From Minisyncoccota bacterium (lineage in GTDB: Bacteria; Patescibacteriota; Minisyncoccia; UBA6257; 2-01-FULL-56-20): a stretch of DNA of 47,274 nt. Both the position numbers and the translations under genes were made by a program. The stretch covers positions 1-47,274 of the forward strand of contig DATKNI010000036.1 in NCBI GenBank assembly GCA_035541415.1, given 5' to 3'. The notes beneath the pieces are model-generated. The model saw only the letters and a list, made by a program, of their open reading frames with translations, was not told the origin of the DNA and searched no databases. This document shows positions 4,158 through 43,215 of the stretch, piece after piece (position 1 is the stretch's first letter; every line of letters starts with the position of its first letter).

Positions 4158-4970
4158 TCATCCCCGGAACCACCGGCTGAACTGACGGAACAGGCTTTCC
4201 GATTCTCGAGCGCCAATCAGGCGCTTGATCTCGGGAATCTTGAGCGTGGCGGCACGGTACCCATGCGCGGCAATCTCGCGCCCCTTTTGAAAGTCCGACG
4301 ACGTGTACTCGTCGAGGCGCGGAACGATCATGATGTCGCCGTCGCCCGGCGGAACATCGTATCGGGACATAATCCGAATCGATTTTTCCATCACGTCCAG
4401 CATATTTTTTGGCATTTCGTGCGACATCCAATGCGTGAGGTTGACGCCGATGCGGATGTCGGCGCCCATTTCGGCGAGTCCCGACATCGGGACATTTTCC
4501 ACGATCCCGCCGTCAACAAAACATTTATCCCCGATCATGACTGGCGTAAAAATAATGGGGATGGCCGCGCTTGCGCGCACCGCCGCAAAAACGCTCCCGC
4601 TGCGGAAGACAACTTTCTCTCCGTTTCCGACGTCGGTCGCAACGATGGCGAGCGGCATATCGGCTTTCTCGATGCGGCGATCGCCGCCCAAAACATCCTC
4701 GAGAACGTTTGCCAGCGCCTCGTTTGAAATGATGCCGAGCTTTGACGGCAGGAATTTTGAAATAGCCCGCCAGTTTAACTGTTCCGCGGCGGACTGCATT
4801 TTTTCTATGGAGACGCCGAAGGCGTAGCATGCCGCGACGACCGCTCCGGCGCTCGTGCCCGCGATGCAATCAATGGGAATGCCGTGGTCGGCAAAACTTT
4901 GCAGGACGCCGAGATGCGCATTGCCGAGAGCAGAACCGCCTCCAAGCGCCAGTCCGATTTTCTTGGCCAT
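4158..4970 (-). CDS. Patatin-like phospholipase (RssA/NTE family)
   Basis: GGGSALG, GTSAG (catalytic Ser) and DGG motifs. Confidence 0.92.
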   Translation of the reverse strand: MAKKIGLALGGGSALGNAHLGVLQSFADHGIPIDCIAGTSAGAVVAACYAFGVSIEKMQSAAEQLNWRAISKFLPSKLGIISNEALANVLEDVLGGDRRIEKADMPLAIVATDVGNGEKVVFRSGSVFAAVRASAAIPIIFTPVMIGDKCFVDGGIVENVPMSGLAEMGADIRIGVNLTHWMSHEMPKNMLDVMEKSIRIMSRYDVPPGDGDIMIVPRLDEYTSSDFQKGREIAAHGYRAATLKIPEIKRLIGARESESLFRQFSRWFRG

Positions 4971-5043
4971 GCATTCATTATAATCCAGAATGATTGACAG
5001 AGCCTCTCTTTATTGGTAACTAAAAAGTAGTAGGAGGTCCGCT

Positions 5044-5412
5044 ATGGGACATGTGATGAAGGCTCCTATGGACGGCCTGGTCGAAAAATTCATTGCATTT
5101 ACCAAGGTCAGGGCCTATTTCCTCTGGAAAGAACGGGTGGAAAAAGGCCTGCCCGGAACGCCGCTCGGCGACTGGCTTGCGGCGCGCAAGTATATCCGGG
5201 AAACATTTCCCTGGCTCGACGATCATCCTGATGGGAATTTTATTCTCAAACCTATGCTCTACGAGCCCGACATCGACGCGGCGCTCTGTTCGGTCTGCGG
5301 ACACTGCCTCAATCAAGGCGAGCTCTTGAAAGGGAGTGTGCAATGCGACTGTTGCGGCGCCATCATTGGACTCTATCGGGATTTACCCCGAAATAACCTT
5401 GCCCATCCTTAG
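5044..5412 (+). CDS. Hypothetical protein: DUF2934-like N-terminus plus C-terminal CxxC/CxxC zinc ribbon
   Basis: SD AGGAGG at 5032-5037; RAYFLW...G....DWLAA; CSVC...CDCC. Confidence 0.7.
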   Translation: MGHVMKAPMDGLVEKFIAFTKVRAYFLWKERVEKGLPGTPLGDWLAARKYIRETFPWLDDHPDGNFILKPMLYEPDIDAALCSVCGHCLNQGELLKGSVQCDCCGAIIGLYRDLPRNNLAHP

Positions 5413-30901: not shown

Positions 30902-31177
30902 TTAAGGGTGGATCGCGCCCTCTTTTTTGAGTATTTCGATTTTCTTCTTGGTGCCCCGCGCATACCCTCCAACCGAGCCGTCGGAACGGACCACGCGGTG
31001 ACACGGAACGCGCTGGGTGTCTGGATTGTTGTGCATGATATTGCCGACGGCACGGGCGGCTCGCGGACTTCCGGCGCGACGGGCGACTTCAGCATAGGTC
31101 ATCGTCTTCCCTTTCGGGATCGCTGCGACCACGTCGTAGACCCGTTCGGTAAATGATTTTTGAACCGGGTATTTCAT
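30902..31177 (-). CDS. Single-domain methylated-DNA--protein-cysteine methyltransferase (MGMT family)
   Basis: IPKGKTMTYAEVA...GSPRAARAVG, VPCHRVV active-site motif. Confidence 0.92.
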   Translation of the reverse strand: MKYPVQKSFTERVYDVVAAIPKGKTMTYAEVARRAGSPRAARAVGNIMHNNPDTQRVPCHRVVRSDGSVGGYARGTKKKIEILKKEGAIHP

Positions 31178-31201: not shown

Positions 31202-31234
31202 AAAATAAAAGGGCCGGGTTGTGGTACCCGGCCC
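31202..31234 (-). terminator. Rho-independent terminator
   Basis: GGGCCGGGT...ACCCGGCCC with an A-run on the left. Confidence 0.7.
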
Positions 31235-31252: not shown

Positions 31253-31669
31253 TTACGGAACGACTTGCAATAATCCATCGTTCCGAATCACGAGCATGAT
31301 GATGGGGCATCCTGGAAATCGACCGCTAACGAGCTCGCCAATCTGCCTCAAAATTCGCTCTGATTCCGCTTCTGATTCCCCTTCGGTCGCGCTGTTTACA
31401 AGAATAATTTTCTGGGCTCCATCCTTCAATACCTCGTCGATCTGATCCAGAATGTCGTCCCGTTGAAACCTGCTCTTCAGCATCCGCCGGGCGCCGCCCA
31501 AGTTATTCACCTCAGTGAATGGAGTTCCCGCTCCAAACATTTTGGCGAAATATTTTTTCATGATGCCTCTGAATCGAGAACTGCCGCTCGCGACAACGCA
31601 AGCTCGCGGACGGACAGTGGCTTCTTCCTTGTCGGCAAGCCTGACCCGCAACACCATTTTCAAAGCCAT
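31253..31669 (-). CDS. Carbonic-anhydrase-like paralog lacking the zinc ligands
   Basis: Aligns by eye with the adjacent CA-like protein; CxDxR replaced by SGSSR and HxxC replaced by SATE. Confidence 0.6.
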   Translation of the reverse strand: MALKMVLRVRLADKEEATVRPRACVVASGSSRFRGIMKKYFAKMFGAGTPFTEVNNLGGARRMLKSRFQRDDILDQIDEVLKDGAQKIILVNSATEGESEAESERILRQIGELVSGRFPGCPIIMLVIRNDGLLQVVP

Positions 31670-31701
31670 AACCCCTCTCGAAAAATTAATTTGCCGGGAA
31701 T

Positions 31702-31730
31702 ATTATATTTGCATTCTTGCTGAATTGCAA
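31702..31730 (-). promoter_or_regulatory. Sigma70 promoter
   Basis: TTGCAA - 17 nt - TATAAT. Confidence 0.7.
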
Positions 31731-31746
31731 GATCTCCGAGGCAAGT

Positions 31747-31772
31747 AAAAAGCCGGGACGCGCGGTCCCGGC
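31747..31772 (-). terminator. Terminator of the atp/CA transcript
   Basis: GCCGGGAC-gcgcg-GTCCCGGC followed by TTTTT on the minus strand. Confidence 0.75.
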
Positions 31773-31788
31773 CTGTATGAAGTTAGCG

Positions 31789-32232
31789 TTACGCCCGATG
31801 AGCGCCGTCGAAATCAAGCAAATATGACTCGACTGGCATTCCCGGGAATTCTTTCTTGAGAAGGCCCGCGGCTTTCTCCATCTCTTCACTTTGGAAAGCG
31901 TACTCCGCTTCCTGAGTGATGAAATTCTTGGAACCGCCGTAGGCTCCGCAGTCGCGGTGAGGCATAAGCACAATCTTGCGGGCGTGATGGAGGGCAATCG
32001 AGATTCTGATTTGCTCAAAAATAAATTTCCGCTCCGCGTCGCTTCCCTGGGTAATCGCCTTTATCCCTCCGGCGACTTCCACCACATCAGGATGCTTGAA
32101 TCCCAACTGTTTCACAAATGCCTTTCGGACTTTATAAATGCGATTATCAAAACACGTTATGATAACCGCTTCGGCGGGGTGGTGGTCGGGTGATGAATCA
32201 AATTCAAAAACTTTTTCCATTGCTACCTGCAT
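31789..32232 (-). CDS. Putative beta-class carbonic anhydrase
   Basis: TCFDNR (CxDxR), VAGG, PHRDCG (HxxC); start overlaps the atpC stop (TAATG). Confidence 0.85.
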   Translation of the reverse strand: MQVAMEKVFEFDSSPDHHPAEAVIITCFDNRIYKVRKAFVKQLGFKHPDVVEVAGGIKAITQGSDAERKFIFEQIRISIALHHARKIVLMPHRDCGAYGGSKNFITQEAEYAFQSEEMEKAAGLLKKEFPGMPVESYLLDFDGAHRA

Positions 32233-32480
32233 TACGCTCGTTCCTCCTCGACGAGAAATCGTCCTTCATTTTGTTTGAATTCCAAAAAACCAGAACTTAC
32301 CGGAATATAATGCTCCTTGGCTTCGTTGTCAACGATTTTCATCGTGCCGCGGTCGAGAATCGAAATGATCGGCTCGTGATTCTGGAGAATGGTGATCTCG
32401 CCGATTTTGGTGCGGCAATTCACCTCGCGGGCTTCGCCCTGGTATAAAACTTTATCGAGTGAATAGACGCCGATTTTCAT
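32232..32480 (-). CDS. atpC: F-type ATP synthase epsilon subunit (N-terminal domain only)
   Basis: GEITILQNHEP, PVSSGFLE; last atp gene; 82 aa. Confidence 0.85.
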   Translation of the reverse strand: MKIGVYSLDKVLYQGEAREVNCRTKIGEITILQNHEPIISILDRGTMKIVDNEAKEHYIPVSSGFLEFKQNEGRFLVEEERA

Positions 32481-38391: not shown

Positions 38392-41300
38392 CTACCACTT
38401 TCCCTGCATATAGGCTCTCGTCTTCGGTCCTAGAATACCTGATGCCGGGGTAATGCCATTCGCTGCCTGCCACTTGGCAAGAGCAGCCTGCGTCTTGCCG
38501 CCAAAGTACATGACTTCATTACCCGGAGATCCAGCTCCGCTTGGGGATATGGTATATCCATTGTCATTCAGGAAAAGCTGGAGGTTCTTTACATCTTGGC
38601 CTGAGCTTCCGATCGTGAGGGTTCGGGTGAAGCTTGCTACCAATTGATGGTTCAATTGGGCAATCAATGCTTGGAGTTCTGCGATGAGGGATTGAAGTAA
38701 TGCTTCAAGACCGGATTGGGATGTGGGGAGGGTTGAGGAAGAGGAAGAGGAAGAGCCGGAGCTGGAAGAACCTGAACCCGATGAGCCTGAACCAGATCCG
38801 GAGCTGCCGGAAGAACCTCCACCGGAACTACCGCTGCCCGATCCACCAGATGAGCCACCACCCCCACCCGATCCGCCGCCTCCCGACGAACCGCCACCTC
38901 CTCCGCCGCCGCCACCACCGCCTGATACGACGGTGTTGCTCACGGTGACGGTGATTGCCGTTGTGTTGGTGTTGCCGGAAGAATCCGTTGCCTTGGCGGT
39001 AATCGTATGGGCGGCGTTGCTCAAACTGGTGGTATCAAGGGAATAGGTCCAACTGGTTGTGCCTTGCACTGCCTGGTAACTGCCTCCATCAATGCTCACT
39101 TGGACATTTGCTACGGACACATTGTCACTCGCACTGCCCTGGATCGTAATCGTGTTCGCAACAACCTGATTGTTGGTGGGGCTGACGATCGCGATGCTCG
39201 GTAGGGTTGTATCGCCCTGGACAATACCTTGGGTTGTCCCTTGGATTTGGGTTGATTGCGCTGACGTGTTTCCTGCGGCGTCATATGCGGAAACGGTGTA
39301 GCTGTAGGTGGTGGATGCGGTGAGGGCGGTGTCCGTGAATGCGTTCGTTGCATTGGTACCGATCTGGGTGCCTCCCCGATATATCTTGTATCCGGTGACG
39401 CCTACGTTGTCCGTTGAAGGATTCCAGGTGAGGGAAATAGTTGAAGTTGTCGTGCCTTGGACATTGAGTCCGGTGGGAACCGTGGGGGGCTGGGTGTCAG
39501 ACGGCGGTGGGTTGTTCACGGTGACGGTGACGGCGCCTGACGTTGTCTGGTTGTTTGATGTATCTTTTGCAAGAGCCGTAATCGTATGGGTTCCATTGGC
39601 CACCTGGGTAGAGTCCCAGGCAAAGGTATATGGCGATGTGGTGTCGGGAGAGCCGACAAAGCTTCCATCAACTTTGAATTGCACCGATTGTATGGCCACA
39701 TTGTCTGATGCGGTTGCCTGGAGCGTGATCGTGCTTGATACGGTTGCGTTGTTAGTGGGAGATGTCACGGACACCGTGGGAGGCGTCGTATCCTGGAACT
39801 TAGTTGTTCCCGTGACTGCTGATGACTGGACAGAATTGTTTCCTGCGGCGTCATATGCACTCACGGTGTAGCTGTAGGTGGTGGATTGATTGAGGCCAAC
39901 ATCCGTGAAAGACGTTGCTGCCGTCGTTCCAATCTGGGTGCCTCCTCTATATATCTTGTATCCCGTGACAGCGATGTTGTCGGTGGAAGCAGTCCACGAG
40001 AGAGAAACGGTTGAGGTGGTTACCGTACCCACAGTGAGGCCCGTGGGGACCGAGGGAGGTGTGGTATCAGGATTGTTTACGATGACCGTGACTTGTTGGG
40101 TATTTGTGTTGTTCGAGGAATCGGTTGCCTTGGCCGTGATGGTATGGGTGCCATTCGTAAGAAGCGTGGTGTTCCAACTGAAGGTCCACGAGGTGGTGCC
40201 TGCGGTTGCAACATATGCTCCCCCATCAATGGAGATCGCAACCGAAGAGACGGATATGTTGTCGGATGCGGTGCCGTTGATATTCACCGTGCCTTGGACG
40301 GTTGCATTGTTTGTGGGAGACGTGATGGCAACCGAGGGAGGCGTGGTATCGAGAACCGTGTTTGAAACGGTTACCCCGACGTTTGCACTCGTGCCCACGT
40401 TGCCTGCCGCATCATATGCCTTGGTAGACAAGGTATGGGATCCGTTCGTTGACGATGCTGTGTTCCAGCTCCAGGTGTAGGGAGAAGAAAGACTGGTGGA
40501 TTGGAGCGCAGAGTCAAGGTAGAACTCAACTTTCGTGACGCCGACATTGTCGGAAGCAGAGGCTTGGACGGCAATGGTTGAGGAGGCGGTCGAACCGGAA
40601 GTGGGAGCAGTAAGGGAAATCGTGGGCGGCGTGGTGTCGCCGCCGCCGCCGGAAGCATATTGGTAGGCACCGATGGTTGGAACAGAAGCTAAGAGCACTT
40701 GCGTGCCATCGGAATCTTTATAGAGATACACGGGAGCACCAACGGTACGCGAGATCGGTGATGCAAGCGTGATGACGTTCGTGGCGTAATTAATAGAGGC
40801 AATCTGCACAATGTTGTTAGTCGAACCCACAGCGATCCAGTCGGGTTGAACACCCGCAATACCATAGCCATCCTGGAAAAAGCTCGCATCATTCACGACA
40901 AGCGACGTGCCGGAACCAGAATCGCCCGAAGCAACATTCGTGAGCGGACCGCCTGCACCGATTGCCTGCGAACCAGCCTGAAGGTGCAGATCCGAGGCGC
41001 TTGTGAAGAGCGGATTCAAGTTAAGCTTGTCCGTTGAATCATAATTACTTGGCCCCGTGCCGGTGGACGGCCCATGCCACGCTCCGGAATAATTGTCGTT
41101 ATAGCAGATGTTGTTATGTTCCACAAAACCGGGCATCGAACTTGAGTCAACGTACATGCACCAAGAAACGCCGCTCAAGTTCGACATGTCCATAAAAATA
41201 TTATTGATAACTTTTGCATTCGTATCGCCATTCGTCCATGAATTAGCTTCATAATCCTGCGTGCCTGTCCATCGCACTGATTCGTTATAAATGCGCTCAC

Positions 41301-43170
41301 CGATTGAATTAGTATCGTTCGCCATATAATAGCTTCCGATATTGATATATTTGTTATACCGAATGATCTGATTCGCTTGGCCGCAGCTATTCACGTCCCG
41401 CAACAAAAATCCATGCGCATTCGAAGCGCCCCAGTCCTGGACGGTGTTATTCTCAAAAACCAGGCGCGTGAGCGGGATGTCGGTGTTTCCCGGAACACAC
41501 GTCGCAGACGATTCGAGCGCGTCCGGATGAGCAGACCCGTATTCTGACGCAAGCACCGGACCAAAATGATTGTTGCGGACCACGTTGTTGCCGCCATAAA
41601 GCGCTATTCCGTCTTCTACGTGTGAAATCGTATTGCCATCAAACAAATTATTATTCCCTTCCATTAAAATTCCTTGTGCAGTCGCGTTGTCGCAATACGT
41701 TATGGTGTTGTTCAAAAATGCATTAAAGCTCGCTGCCTGATAATTTCCGCTGAGCGGGGCCTGAAAACATCTGGCGCTTGTGTTGTGGACATAATTATTC
41801 TGGATGATGACATGGCTCATGGTCGTCCACGATGTCACTCCGGTGATTTCAAAACCTTGGCTCGCCAAAATTCCTCCTATCGTTATGTAGGAAGCGCTTC
41901 CAAGCGTGATGCCAGAGTTGATGACCACGGTATCACCAGGATTTTTCTGGAACGTTATCGGGCTCCCGGCGCTGCCGCTCGTGGTCTGGTTCCACCCGGC
42001 ATACGTTCCTGCATAGACCACGCACGTATCCCCCGCAACGGCGGCATTTGAACAGGCCTGGATCGTCGTGAAATTGCCCGTACCGTCTTTTTTCACCGTA
42101 TATGTATGCGGCCCGCTGCTTTGCTGGGTTGTTGCGTTCACACTGCCCGACTGCGCAGACGTATTGAGTGCGGCGTCGGTCGCAGAGATCGTGTATGAAT
42201 ACGTTGTGCCGGCAGCAAGACCGGTATCGCTATAGCTCGTTGCCCCCGCGGAGGTCGTTGTTATCTTTGTCCCGTTCCGATACAGGTTGTACGTAATCTG
42301 GTTTTGCGCAGAAACATTGTCCGTGGAAGCAGTCCAGGAAAGGTTGATTTGGGTTTGAGAAACAGCCGCGGCCGCGAGGTTGGTCGGGACCGAAGGAGGC
42401 GTCGTGTCAGTGCTCGTACTGCCGCCGCTCGCAGACTTAAAGGCTGCAATTTCTGCCACCATTCCCGTTGCTCCGGTTTCCGTCCATGTGGGATTCTGCG
42501 CGGAGGCATCGGAGGAAATGTAATAAGCGGACTGCATCGAATCAGTAATACTGCTCGCAATTCCGAAATCGCTTTGATCAAGAACGAACGGCGTCGATAT
42601 AGAGCCAGAGCTTGGAAGCCGCGCCGAACTCCAGCCGGTCACGAACAGATCACCCGTCTGCGAAGGAGTTGAAATTCCCGTCTGGACGGAAGTCCCATCG
42701 ATACTCCCCCATGAAAATGAACCAGCATCATACACTGCGCTCGTGGTGAGCGTTCCGGAATAGGCTTCGATAAGGGCGCGCATATTGGTTGCAGTGTTCC
42801 CAACGTGAATGTGGAATGTTTGGTTTGCCCCGACAGTAGGATTGTAGACATAATACATCCGCTGATAGCCAGAATGATTCACTACGGCAGGATCGGCTTG
42901 CCAGCCTCCGATGCCATTCCAAATATTGTTATTGCTGTCACTCACGGTTAAGGTCGATGTGCCGCTTCGGGTATGGACAATAAAGACAAGGAGTGTCGCC
43001 CCCGAAGTGTTCATCGCCGTGGAGGTTGCGTCTACCGTTGCATCACAGCAGGTGTATGATATCTGCCCGCTCGTCACTAAACCGATAGCGGCGTGAGCAT
43101 TATTTATGGCGAAGGGTAAGAGTAGTAATAAAAATAAGGCCAAAATAACGGCGCTTCGGAGCTTTGTCAT
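38392..43170 (-). CDS. Giant exported protein: N-terminal beta domain, FN3, right-handed beta-helix (pectin-lyase-like), 4 Ig-like plus 2 further FN3 repeats, Gly/Ser linker, C-terminal peptidoglycan-binding domain
   Basis: Signal peptide (..NNAHA-AI); seven DTxP-initiated modules; TVKKDGTGNFTTIQ..AGDT..V..GTY; LTIGSSGQDVKNLQ.FL..YFG.KT.AAL.KWQ..G.LGPKTR; start at ATG 43170. Confidence 0.88.
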   Translation of the reverse strand: MTKLRSAVILALFLLLLLPFAINNAHAAIGLVTSGQISYTCCDATVDATSTAMNTSGATLLVFIVHTRSGTSTLTVSDSNNNIWNGIGGWQADPAVVNHSGYQRMYYVYNPTVGANQTFHIHVGNTATNMRALIEAYSGTLTTSAVYDAGSFSWGSIDGTSVQTGISTPSQTGDLFVTGWSSARLPSSGSISTPFVLDQSDFGIASSITDSMQSAYYISSDASAQNPTWTETGATGMVAEIAAFKSASGGSTSTDTTPPSVPTNLAAAAVSQTQINLSWTASTDNVSAQNQITYNLYRNGTKITTTSAGATSYSDTGLAAGTTYSYTISATDAALNTSAQSGSVNATTQQSSGPHTYTVKKDGTGNFTTIQACSNAAVAGDTCVVYAGTYAGWNQTTSGSAGSPITFQKNPGDTVVINSGITLGSASYITIGGILASQGFEITGVTSWTTMSHVIIQNNYVHNTSARCFQAPLSGNYQAASFNAFLNNTITYCDNATAQGILMEGNNNLFDGNTISHVEDGIALYGGNNVVRNNHFGPVLASEYGSAHPDALESSATCVPGNTDIPLTRLVFENNTVQDWGASNAHGFLLRDVNSCGQANQIIRYNKYINIGSYYMANDTNSIGERIYNESVRWTGTQDYEANSWTNGDTNAKVINNIFMDMSNLSGVSWCMYVDSSSMPGFVEHNNICYNDNYSGAWHGPSTGTGPSNYDSTDKLNLNPLFTSASDLHLQAGSQAIGAGGPLTNVASGDSGSGTSLVVNDASFFQDGYGIAGVQPDWIAVGSTNNIVQIASINYATNVITLASPISRTVGAPVYLYKDSDGTQVLLASVPTIGAYQYASGGGGDTTPPTISLTAPTSGSTASSTIAVQASASDNVGVTKVEFYLDSALQSTSLSSPYTWSWNTASSTNGSHTLSTKAYDAAGNVGTSANVGVTVSNTVLDTTPPSVAITSPTNNATVQGTVNINGTASDNISVSSVAISIDGGAYVATAGTTSWTFSWNTTLLTNGTHTITAKATDSSNNTNTQQVTVIVNNPDTTPPSVPTGLTVGTVTTSTVSLSWTASTDNIAVTGYKIYRGGTQIGTTAATSFTDVGLNQSTTYSYTVSAYDAAGNNSVQSSAVTGTTKFQDTTPPTVSVTSPTNNATVSSTITLQATASDNVAIQSVQFKVDGSFVGSPDTTSPYTFAWDSTQVANGTHTITALAKDTSNNQTTSGAVTVTVNNPPPSDTQPPTVPTGLNVQGTTTSTISLTWNPSTDNVGVTGYKIYRGGTQIGTNATNAFTDTALTASTTYSYTVSAYDAAGNTSAQSTQIQGTTQGIVQGDTTLPSIAIVSPTNNQVVANTITIQGSASDNVSVANVQVSIDGGSYQAVQGTTSWTYSLDTTSLSNAAHTITAKATDSSGNTNTTAITVTVSNTVVSGGGGGGGGGGGSSGGGGSGGGGGSSGGSGSGSSGGGSSGSSGSGSGSSGSGSSSSGSSSSSSSTLPTSQSGLEALLQSLIAELQALIAQLNHQLVASFTRTLTIGSSGQDVKNLQLFLNDNGYTISPSGAGSPGNEVMYFGGKTQAALAKWQAANGITPASGILGPKTRAYMQGKW
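38734..38921 (-). repeat. Low-complexity Gly/Ser linker repeats
   Basis: GAGGAA x3 and CCG/CCA runs on the + strand encoding GGGGGGG..SSGSGS..SSSSSS. Confidence 0.85.
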
Positions 43171-43215
43171 ATATTTCATTCTAGCAAATAGAAATAAGGC
43201 AGTCTGGAGCAAAAA

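Follow-up and report, generated by a model that had tools for sequence, protein, structure and literature searches.

Two adjacent open reading frames (ORFs), here called ORF A and ORF B, fill positions 31253–32232 of a 47,274-nucleotide stretch of Minisyncoccota DNA (contig DATKNI010000036.1; the whole stretch is referred to as the window), and both are encoded on the minus strand. ORF A is a putative β-class carbonic anhydrase (CA) of the Pfam family Pro_CA_2. ORF B is, with high probability, a retained paralog of the same family that has lost the metal ligands. A complete operon for F1Fo ATP synthase, encoding subunits a, b, δ, α, γ, β and ε, lies upstream on the same strand, and the features from its last gene onwards are:

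32232..32480, minus strand: atpC, ATP synthase ε subunit (PF02823, E 1.7e-18), the last canonical gene of the F1Fo atp operon
31789..32232, minus strand: ORF A, Pro_CA_2 putative β-class carbonic anhydrase (PF20393), 147 residues, or 143 residues from an ATG at 32220
31750..31774, minus strand: intrinsic-terminator-like hairpin and T-run directly 3' of ORF A (consensus scan)
31702..31730, minus strand: σ70-like promoter TTGCAA-17-TATAAT of ORF B (10 of 12 consensus matches)
31672..31679, minus strand: ribosome-binding site (RBS) GAGAGGGG, 2 nt 5' of the ORF B ATG (read off the sequence)
31253..31669, minus strand: ORF B, predicted metal-ligand-less Pro_CA_2 paralog, 138 residues (hhalign to Pro_CA_2)
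31211..31234, minus strand: intrinsic-terminator-like hairpin (9 bp, 8 of them GC) and T-run 3' of ORF B (consensus scan)
30902..31177, minus strand: MGMT-type (O6-methylguanine-DNA methyltransferase) domain protein, 91 residues, with a PCHRV motif (PF01035, E 1.2e-32)

The start codon of the 147-residue form of ORF A overlaps the atpC stop codon (TAATG), and the methionine of the 143-residue form, in the sequence MEKVF, lies 12 nt further on and is the start used by all homologs. Because ORF A follows atpC by 0–12 nt, and the consensus scan found no terminator between the two genes, ORF A probably forms the final cistron of the atp operon and is co-transcribed with it. ORF B is predicted to be an independent, separately transcribed unit. 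The promoter and terminator that an earlier, sequence-only reading of the region had assigned to it were both located (31730..31702 and 31234..31211), and the arrangement recurs in all five genomes where a B gene follows an A gene, i.e., the window and the related loci L001, L004, L008 and L012. In each of the five, the 100–130-nt spacer between A and B contains a GC-rich hairpin and T-run, a TTGnnn-17-TATA(A/C)T promoter and a GGAG-type RBS, in that order. The hairpin after A has an equivalent in each of the four related loci, which carry TTGnnn-17-TATACT at the same place, and the signals are kept despite differing spacer sequences. We infer that ORF B is expressed.

Homology of ORF B to Pro_CA_2 and the former metal site

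ORF A passes the Pro_CA_2 model PF20393 with 47.4 bits against a Pfam cut-off of 30 (E 2.6e-12), and has intact CxDxR and HxxCG motifs (C23-F-D25-N-R27 and H88-R-D-C91-G in the numbering of the 143-residue form). All 37 aligned Pro_CA_2 sequences have the Cys, Asp and Arg of the first motif and the His and Cys of the second. An AlphaFold2 model of the protein (predicted local distance difference test score, pLDDT, 86.8; predicted template modelling score, pTM, 0.82) returns solved β-CAs as its best 17 Foldseek matches, among them 6y04 (E 3.4e-5) and the "Cab" enzyme 1g5c (E 2.2e-4), with TM-scores of 0.5–0.64, and the α/β fold of β-CAs is accordingly a prediction of the model. The classical β-CA model PF00484 gives 17.6 bits, under its cut-off of 25.7, and ORF A is therefore not a member of that classical model. 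As far as sequence and model tell, the putative enzyme resembles the short "Cab"-type β-CAs, and the name carbonic anhydrase, which the sequence-only reading had given it outright, is kept here as a prediction. The open-access literature yielded neither biochemical data nor a paper on PF20393. Matches of the Pro_CA_2 profile to BurrH in the PDB were dismissed as a repeat artefact, made up of many sub-threshold matches to "DIVKIAG".

ORF B has no significant match in Pfam or NCBIfam, and no member of its family is detected by the Pfam Pro_CA_2 model. Compared directly by BLASTP, ORF A and ORF B are 26% identical over 111 residues (E 4e-4, for a single comparison), and their Smith–Waterman score of 56 stands against 26.8 ± 4.5 for 2000 shuffles of B (z 6.6), one of which reaches 56. 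Profile–profile alignment with hhalign of the seven-member B family against six Pro_CA_2 sequences gives a probability of 98.2% and E 3.3e-14 over 134 of approximately 138 columns, in the register that had been proposed by eye. The five segment pairs of that by-eye alignment are all reproduced by BLASTP, MAFFT and hhalign: AVIITCFDNR/ACVVASGSSR, VAGG/LGGA, ERKFIFEQI/QRDDILDQI, ARKIVLMPHRDCG/AQKIILVNSATEG and EFPGMPV..DFDG/RFPGCPI..RNDG. For a control of specificity, hidden Markov models (HMMs) of both families were compared with all stop-to-stop ORFs of at least 60 residues in 41 loci. With the B-family HMM, matches (best E 1.6e-16) are confined to the two gene slots and include more than 30 canonical Pro_CA_2 proteins; the Pro_CA_2 HMM matches B members in return (P0008, E 2.9e-10). 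The profile alignment and the reciprocal matches identify ORF B as a genuine paralog of the adjoining β-CA-like gene, though a strongly diverged one.

The alternative that A and B resemble each other by chance, or by fold-level convergence of small α/β proteins, with B unrelated to CAs, can draw on the low pairwise identity, the silence of the Pfam Pro_CA_2 model on every B member, and a Foldseek search that does not connect the B model to β-CAs. We consider it effectively refuted, given a profile–profile E-value of 3.3e-14 over the full length, reciprocal HMM matches with zero false positives among the ORFs of the 41 loci, the genomic slot shared by the two genes, the existence of ligand-bearing intermediates, and an identical order of secondary-structure elements in A and B. 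A relation to the Pup-like proteins was also rejected, as the matches are weak (Pfam E 0.045; TIGR03687 E 0.0033) and far below the cut-offs, and there is no C-terminal GGQ or GGE. The sub-threshold match to the Pup C-terminus falls on an acidic helix of ORF B, DDILDQIDEVLKDGAQ (residues 70–86; window 31459–31506), and is judged compositional.

In the register shared by MAFFT and hhalign, the ligand columns C23, D25, H88 and C91 of ORF A are occupied by Ser28, Ser30, Ser93 and Glu96 in ORF B, which bears out the loss of Cys, Asp, His and Cys already noticed in the earlier reading. Independently of any alignment, ORF B contains no His and only two Cys (C24 and C121), so that a Cys-His-Cys zinc site is impossible, and with it CO2 hydration by the β-CA mechanism. 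The Arg of CxDxR alone survives in the window protein, as Arg32, and the Asp-Arg dyad is thus absent. Approximately 12 residues are deleted in the loop behind HxxC (CGAYGGSKxF...). Judged by its sequence, ORF B fails the defining β-CA features, i.e., the zinc ligands and the Asp-Arg dyad; it should not be classed as a β-CA, and is instead a candidate Pro_CA_2-derived pseudoenzyme. Across the family, the first-ligand column is Ser in six members out of seven and, as MAFFT aligns it, in the remaining one as well; the former His column holds Ser, Pro or Thr, the former Cys column Glu, Gln or Arg, and the Arg32 column Arg, Lys, Ala or Glu. The string "ICSDSGK" in the L001 ortholog might be taken for a retained Cys and Asp, but in the alignments it is shifted by one position, and the column of the Cys ligand holds Ser. 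In the seven-member alignment, Ser28, G59-A60-R61, L107 and G132 are invariant, and the residue after the GG pair is basic in both proteins (conserved Lys in A, Arg in B).

In the AlphaFold2 model of ORF B (pLDDT 80.6, pTM 0.75) the secondary-structure elements follow one another exactly as they do in that of ORF A, β-α-β-α-α-β-α-β-β, and to this extent the fold pattern is retained as the sequence-only reading held. Searches that start from ORF B do not lead to solved β-CAs: Foldseek with the B model finds no β-CA in the top 50, returning generic flavodoxin-like three-layer α/β folds only (best E 6e-3), and the ORF B profile finds no β-CA by sequence in the PDB. Since neither search reaches a β-CA, the link from ORF B to β-CAs is only transitive, via Pro_CA_2. 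Preservation of the β-CA fold in ORF B is supported by the models but not proven.

Genomic context and origin of ORF B

The genomes closest to the window were assembled from metagenomes and carry the labels Candidatus Paceibacterota, Parcubacteria or Minisyncoccia; they belong to the Candidate Phyla Radiation (CPR; Patescibacteria), and their chromosomes measure approximately 0.8–0.9 Mb. A gene pair in which atpC is followed after 0–20 nt by Pro_CA_2 is present in the window and in 26 of 28 species-representative Paceibacterota/Parcubacteria genomes (loci L013–L039), as well as in metagenomic contigs; in the remaining 2 of the 28, atpC was not detected upstream of Pro_CA_2. We found nothing in the open-access literature on the atpC–Pro_CA_2 linkage or on a CA gene in the atp operons of CPR bacteria. 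The order atpC–Pro_CA_2–B–(PIG-L)–MGMT recurs in L001, L004, L008 and L012.

The slot after Pro_CA_2 is plastic. It usually holds another β-CA-like gene, and elsewhere different paralogs in either orientation, or it is empty. The ligand-less B is found there in the window, L001, L004, L008 and L012. In L006 the slot is occupied by P0006, an intact second Pro_CA_2. Two further groups of paralogs also have the ligand residues. Group B0 retains GCSDRR and HNECxAC motifs, and aligns by hhalign to Pro_CA_2 with a probability of 98.5% and to B with 94.6%. Group C proteins, approximately 195 residues long, have TCSDGDRF...HAxCGAA in the ligand register (hhalign 93.4% to Pro_CA_2), and thus make up a further undescribed β-CA-like family. 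Pfam recognises none of these second-slot paralogs. The positions of the two groups are:

L014:1731-2222, L019:4463-4963, L022:4461-4943 and L026:4526-4957: B0 paralogs, very diverged, no Pfam match
L018, L023, L027, L028, L030-L033, L035 and L036, about 4450-5300, either strand: group C, with the pattern TCSDGDRF...WHGG...HAxCGAA...VDYG

The same slot holds two other groups with CxD/HxxC-like strings and no significant profile match to Pro_CA_2, group D (approximately 188 residues, CCDPKIR...GHDLC; L017:4447-5010 and L020:4439-4996) and group E (approximately 355 residues, CMDGR...; L016:4490-5554 and L021:4514-5605). As to the first slot, the gene at L008:3387-3878, in the genome of the B member P0010, is a strongly diverged Pro_CA_2 of 163 residues that stays below the Pfam threshold (E 0.0045) and keeps CIDWR and HRDCGAYG. 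Going by this sequence, the "catalytic" first-slot copy can evolve fast too in some lineages.

The B family is tiny, with seven members. A word-indexed search of 5.8 billion proteins returned no match except the window's own ORF B protein, and an exhaustive HMMER search of 1.84 billion representatives gave four relatives (P0007–P0010), with identities of 26–42%. A profile search for B members found three besides the window protein, and two metagenome scans found none. Genes adjoining Pro_CA_2 in related contigs supply the two further members that complete the seven.

Neighbour-joining trees do not group B with its own neighbour. The B proteins and the A clade of the window come together in 0 of 300 bootstraps, and a recent duplication of the neighbouring gene is thereby rejected. 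With its most aberrant member removed, B forms a monophyletic group in 88% of bootstraps, and B clusters with B0 in 83%, the latter having P-G-G and R-F-P motifs in common with B. ORF B thus belongs to an old second-slot paralog lineage of Paceibacterota, one branch of which lost the ligands, and B0 may resemble the ligand-bearing ancestral state, although the clade of B and B0 may also be a product of long-branch attraction. In the course of events that we propose, the β-CA-like gene at the end of the atp operon would have undergone tandem duplication long ago in the Paceibacterota lineage, giving rise to the second slot. The second copy would have kept Cys/Asp/Arg/His/Cys in some lineages; in that of the window Ser would have replaced the first Cys, Asp and His, and Glu the second Cys, so that none of the four metal and catalytic residues remained. 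The approximately 12 loop residues behind HxxC would have gone as well, while the β-α-β core would have stayed.

Two features outside the A–B pair bear on the surroundings. On the 3' side of ORF B the window encodes the MGMT-type protein and also a Gmad2-domain protein. The MGMT-type gene, which we used as a synteny anchor, stands alone; a TATAAT box lies just after the ORF B terminator, and most related genomes likewise have the gene 3' of the CA-like pair. In several relatives a gene for a PIG-L-family deacetylase sits between B and the MGMT gene, a position where the window has none. Next to the atp operon, an ORF for 1606 residues (window 38392-43212, minus strand) encodes four Big_7, three fn3 and one Big_13 domain, a RGI-lyase β domain and a C-terminal peptidoglycan-binding domain, and its product, of a type characteristic of CPR episymbionts, is probably a giant adhesin or other surface protein.

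Apparent maintenance and possible roles of ORF B

Between all B orthologs the synonymous sites are saturated, with a proportion of synonymous differences (pS) of 0.65–0.89 and many undefined dS values. The proportion of nonsynonymous differences (pN) is 0.29–0.58, and lower than pS in every pair. Where an apparent dN/dS of B is computable it lies at 0.2–0.7, a range that is unreliable as dS is saturated. The dN/dS ratio, which had been suggested together with synteny as a check, was therefore set aside as proof of selection, and pN < pS and retention of the frame are used in its place. The open frame of B is intact in seven of seven lineages, at 132–148 codons; the chance of an open 138-codon frame in random sequence is approximately 0.0013. 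A search for close strains found that only two wetland-metagenome DNA runs hold the region, with sequences identical to the window and no variants. Because the frame is retained at saturated dS, with pN below pS, invariant motifs, and a conserved terminator, promoter and RBS, ORF B looks maintained rather than decaying, as the sequence-only reading had supposed.

Four readings of its role were weighed. One takes ORF B for an evolutionary leftover, i.e., a redundant duplicate under strongly relaxed constraint that is drifting to loss and has no specific function, its frame staying open mostly through chance or a weak selection such as that for non-toxic folding. The rate of change fits such a fate, as B orthologs are only 20–55% identical where atpC is 71–87% identical and A is 57–70% identical within the A clade of the window, and so do the pN and apparent dN/dS ranges given above, the tiny phylogenetic range and the high plasticity of the slot. 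It is nevertheless unlikely, because a frame of similar length persists in seven lineages at saturated synonymous divergence (a chance of approximately 0.0013 for one random frame), Ser, GGAR and DG do not vary within the family, and five genomes share the promoter, RBS and terminator. The genomes concerned are moreover small and streamlined, and CPR genomes tend not to carry dead genes. At the opposite end, ORF B could still be an enzyme with another chemistry, either a metal-independent hydrolase or lyase that uses Ser, Thr and Arg, or a protein with another metal site. Ser is invariant at the position of the first Cys ligand with a conserved Thr and Arg close by, and the β-CA fold is known to support other reactions, e.g., those of COS and CS2 hydrolases. 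However, no acid/base or nucleophile triad is conserved, the neighbours of the Ser differ between members, searches of Pfam, NCBIfam and the PDB link ORF B to no enzyme family, and enzyme active sites do not usually change at so high a rate, all of which makes this reading improbable.

The remaining two readings assign ORF B a binding function, and both had been put forward in the sequence-only reading. Conservation in the family is strongest at Ser28, which closes strand 1, at GGAR immediately behind strand 2 and at Thr95 immediately behind strand 3. In the model these residues all lie along the C-terminal edge of the parallel sheet, the side on which β-CAs form their active site. Since the conserved residues sit at this ancestral active-site edge, and a basic residue (Lys or Arg) follows the GG pair, the crevice is suggested to be still used for binding; the old active-site crevice, the old dimer surface or both would then bind and not catalyse. 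ORF B might do so alone, as a binder or sensor of a small ligand, an anion such as bicarbonate, phosphate or a carboxylate, in a remodelled pocket formed in the window protein by Ser28, Gly-Gly-Ala-Arg61, Thr95 and Arg32. In addition to the clustering of invariant residues in the loops after strands 1, 2 and 3, this agrees with the separate promoter and terminator in five genomes and with the uncoupled rates of A and B. It agrees also with the locus L011 (384-1050), where the B member P0008 follows atpC by 22 nt with an RBS but no promoter in the spacer, and no A gene lies between; the contig ends just after B. Nevertheless, only some 7 of approximately 138 positions are invariant, the positions of Arg32 (R/K/A/E), the former His (S/P/T) and the former Cys (E/Q/R) vary in the family, and no output domain or partner gene is evident, so that we rate a solitary role as doubtful, if less so than a leftover. 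The leading candidate for a partner is the adjacent Pro_CA_2 protein, and ORF B would then be a regulatory or heteromeric subunit made from its own promoter. β-CAs are obligate dimers with the active site at the dimer interface, and a second β-CA-like gene next to Pro_CA_2 is the rule in the clade; for these two reasons we place a non-catalytic partner or regulator of A in front, as a tentative proposal whose probability stays below even. Several observations weigh against it. When the window is compared with its two closest relatives, ORF B changes approximately two to three times faster than ORF A: identities are 78% for atpC, 70% for A and 25% for B against L004, and 78, 57 and 25%, respectively, against L001. 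Such fast divergence would not be expected of a protein that co-evolves closely with a conserved enzyme across an interface. The family is very small, and no RNA run containing the ORF B gene was found. With its separate transcription, the presence of B without an intervening A in L011 and the uncoupled rate of change, an obligate, stoichiometric A–B complex in particular is somewhat disfavoured.

The context may in fact outweigh the gene pair. A β-CA-like gene ends the atp operon in most of the sampled Paceibacterota, usually followed by a second paralog, and the gene order hints at a link of CO2, bicarbonate or proton handling to ATP synthase in these reduced, uncultured bacteria. A far-reaching version, which we regard as speculative and most probably wrong in its full form, is that Paceibacterota atp operons carry a β-CA-like module, composed of the catalytic Pro_CA_2 and a variable second protein, that acts with ATP synthase, e.g., through local buffering or supply of protons and bicarbonate at the membrane in cells that have no respiratory chain. 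The second protein in the window would in that case be a metal-free regulatory subunit or a CO2/bicarbonate switch with its own promoter.

Comparison with related proteins and known pseudoenzymes

The nearest family to ORF B is Pro_CA_2 itself (PF20393, approximately 143 residues, with the "Cab"-type β-CAs such as 1g5c as its closest relatives), of which ORF A is a member. ORF B is homologous over its full length and has the same predicted order of secondary-structure elements, but it is missed by the Pfam model, has none of the Cys/Asp/His/Cys residues, and has the deletion of approximately 12 residues in the loop. The second-slot paralogs P0006, B0 and C are Pro_CA_2 homologs that share with B the slot after atpC and Pro_CA_2; unlike B, they have Cys/Asp/Arg/His/Cys in register. 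The same slot, with ligands intact in some genomes and all lost in others, provides a natural series for the dismantling of a metalloenzyme site.

Within the β class, the closest parallel is the carboxysomal enzyme CsoSCA, whose C-terminal domain reportedly arose by an internal duplication in which one copy lost the zinc site. As in the A–B pair, a zinc-less duplicate with β-CA fold is said to lie beside an active copy, where it stands in for the second protomer of the canonical dimer. The dead copy in CsoSCA is however fused, and an obligate structural partner, whereas ORF B is a separate gene with its own predicted promoter and terminator that evolves very fast, and its partnership with ORF A is only proposed. 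Stand-alone CA paralogs without metal ligands and with binding or structural roles occur in other classes, as CARP VIII, X and XI of the α class, and as the γ-CA-like (CAL) subunits of plant mitochondrial complex I, which form heteromers with ligand-bearing γ-CAs on a bioenergetic complex. ORF B resembles these proteins in being a ligand-less CA paralog, and the bioenergetic setting of CAL is echoed by the atp-operon context of the A–B pair. They belong to the α and γ classes with other folds, and are eukaryotic and well conserved, whereas ORF B is β-class-derived, bacterial and poorly conserved.

To our knowledge, dead CA paralogs are known for the α class (CARPs) and the γ class (CAL, CcmM), and for the β class only as the fused CsoSCA domain, and no description of a free-standing β-class CA-related pseudoenzyme in bacteria was found in the open-access literature. 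A free-standing, separately transcribed and metal-free β-CA-like protein from a bacterium would extend the pseudoenzyme concept to the β class. Should the module acting with ATP synthase exist as well, it would be a bacterial, β-class analogue of the γ-CA/CAL module on plant complex I.

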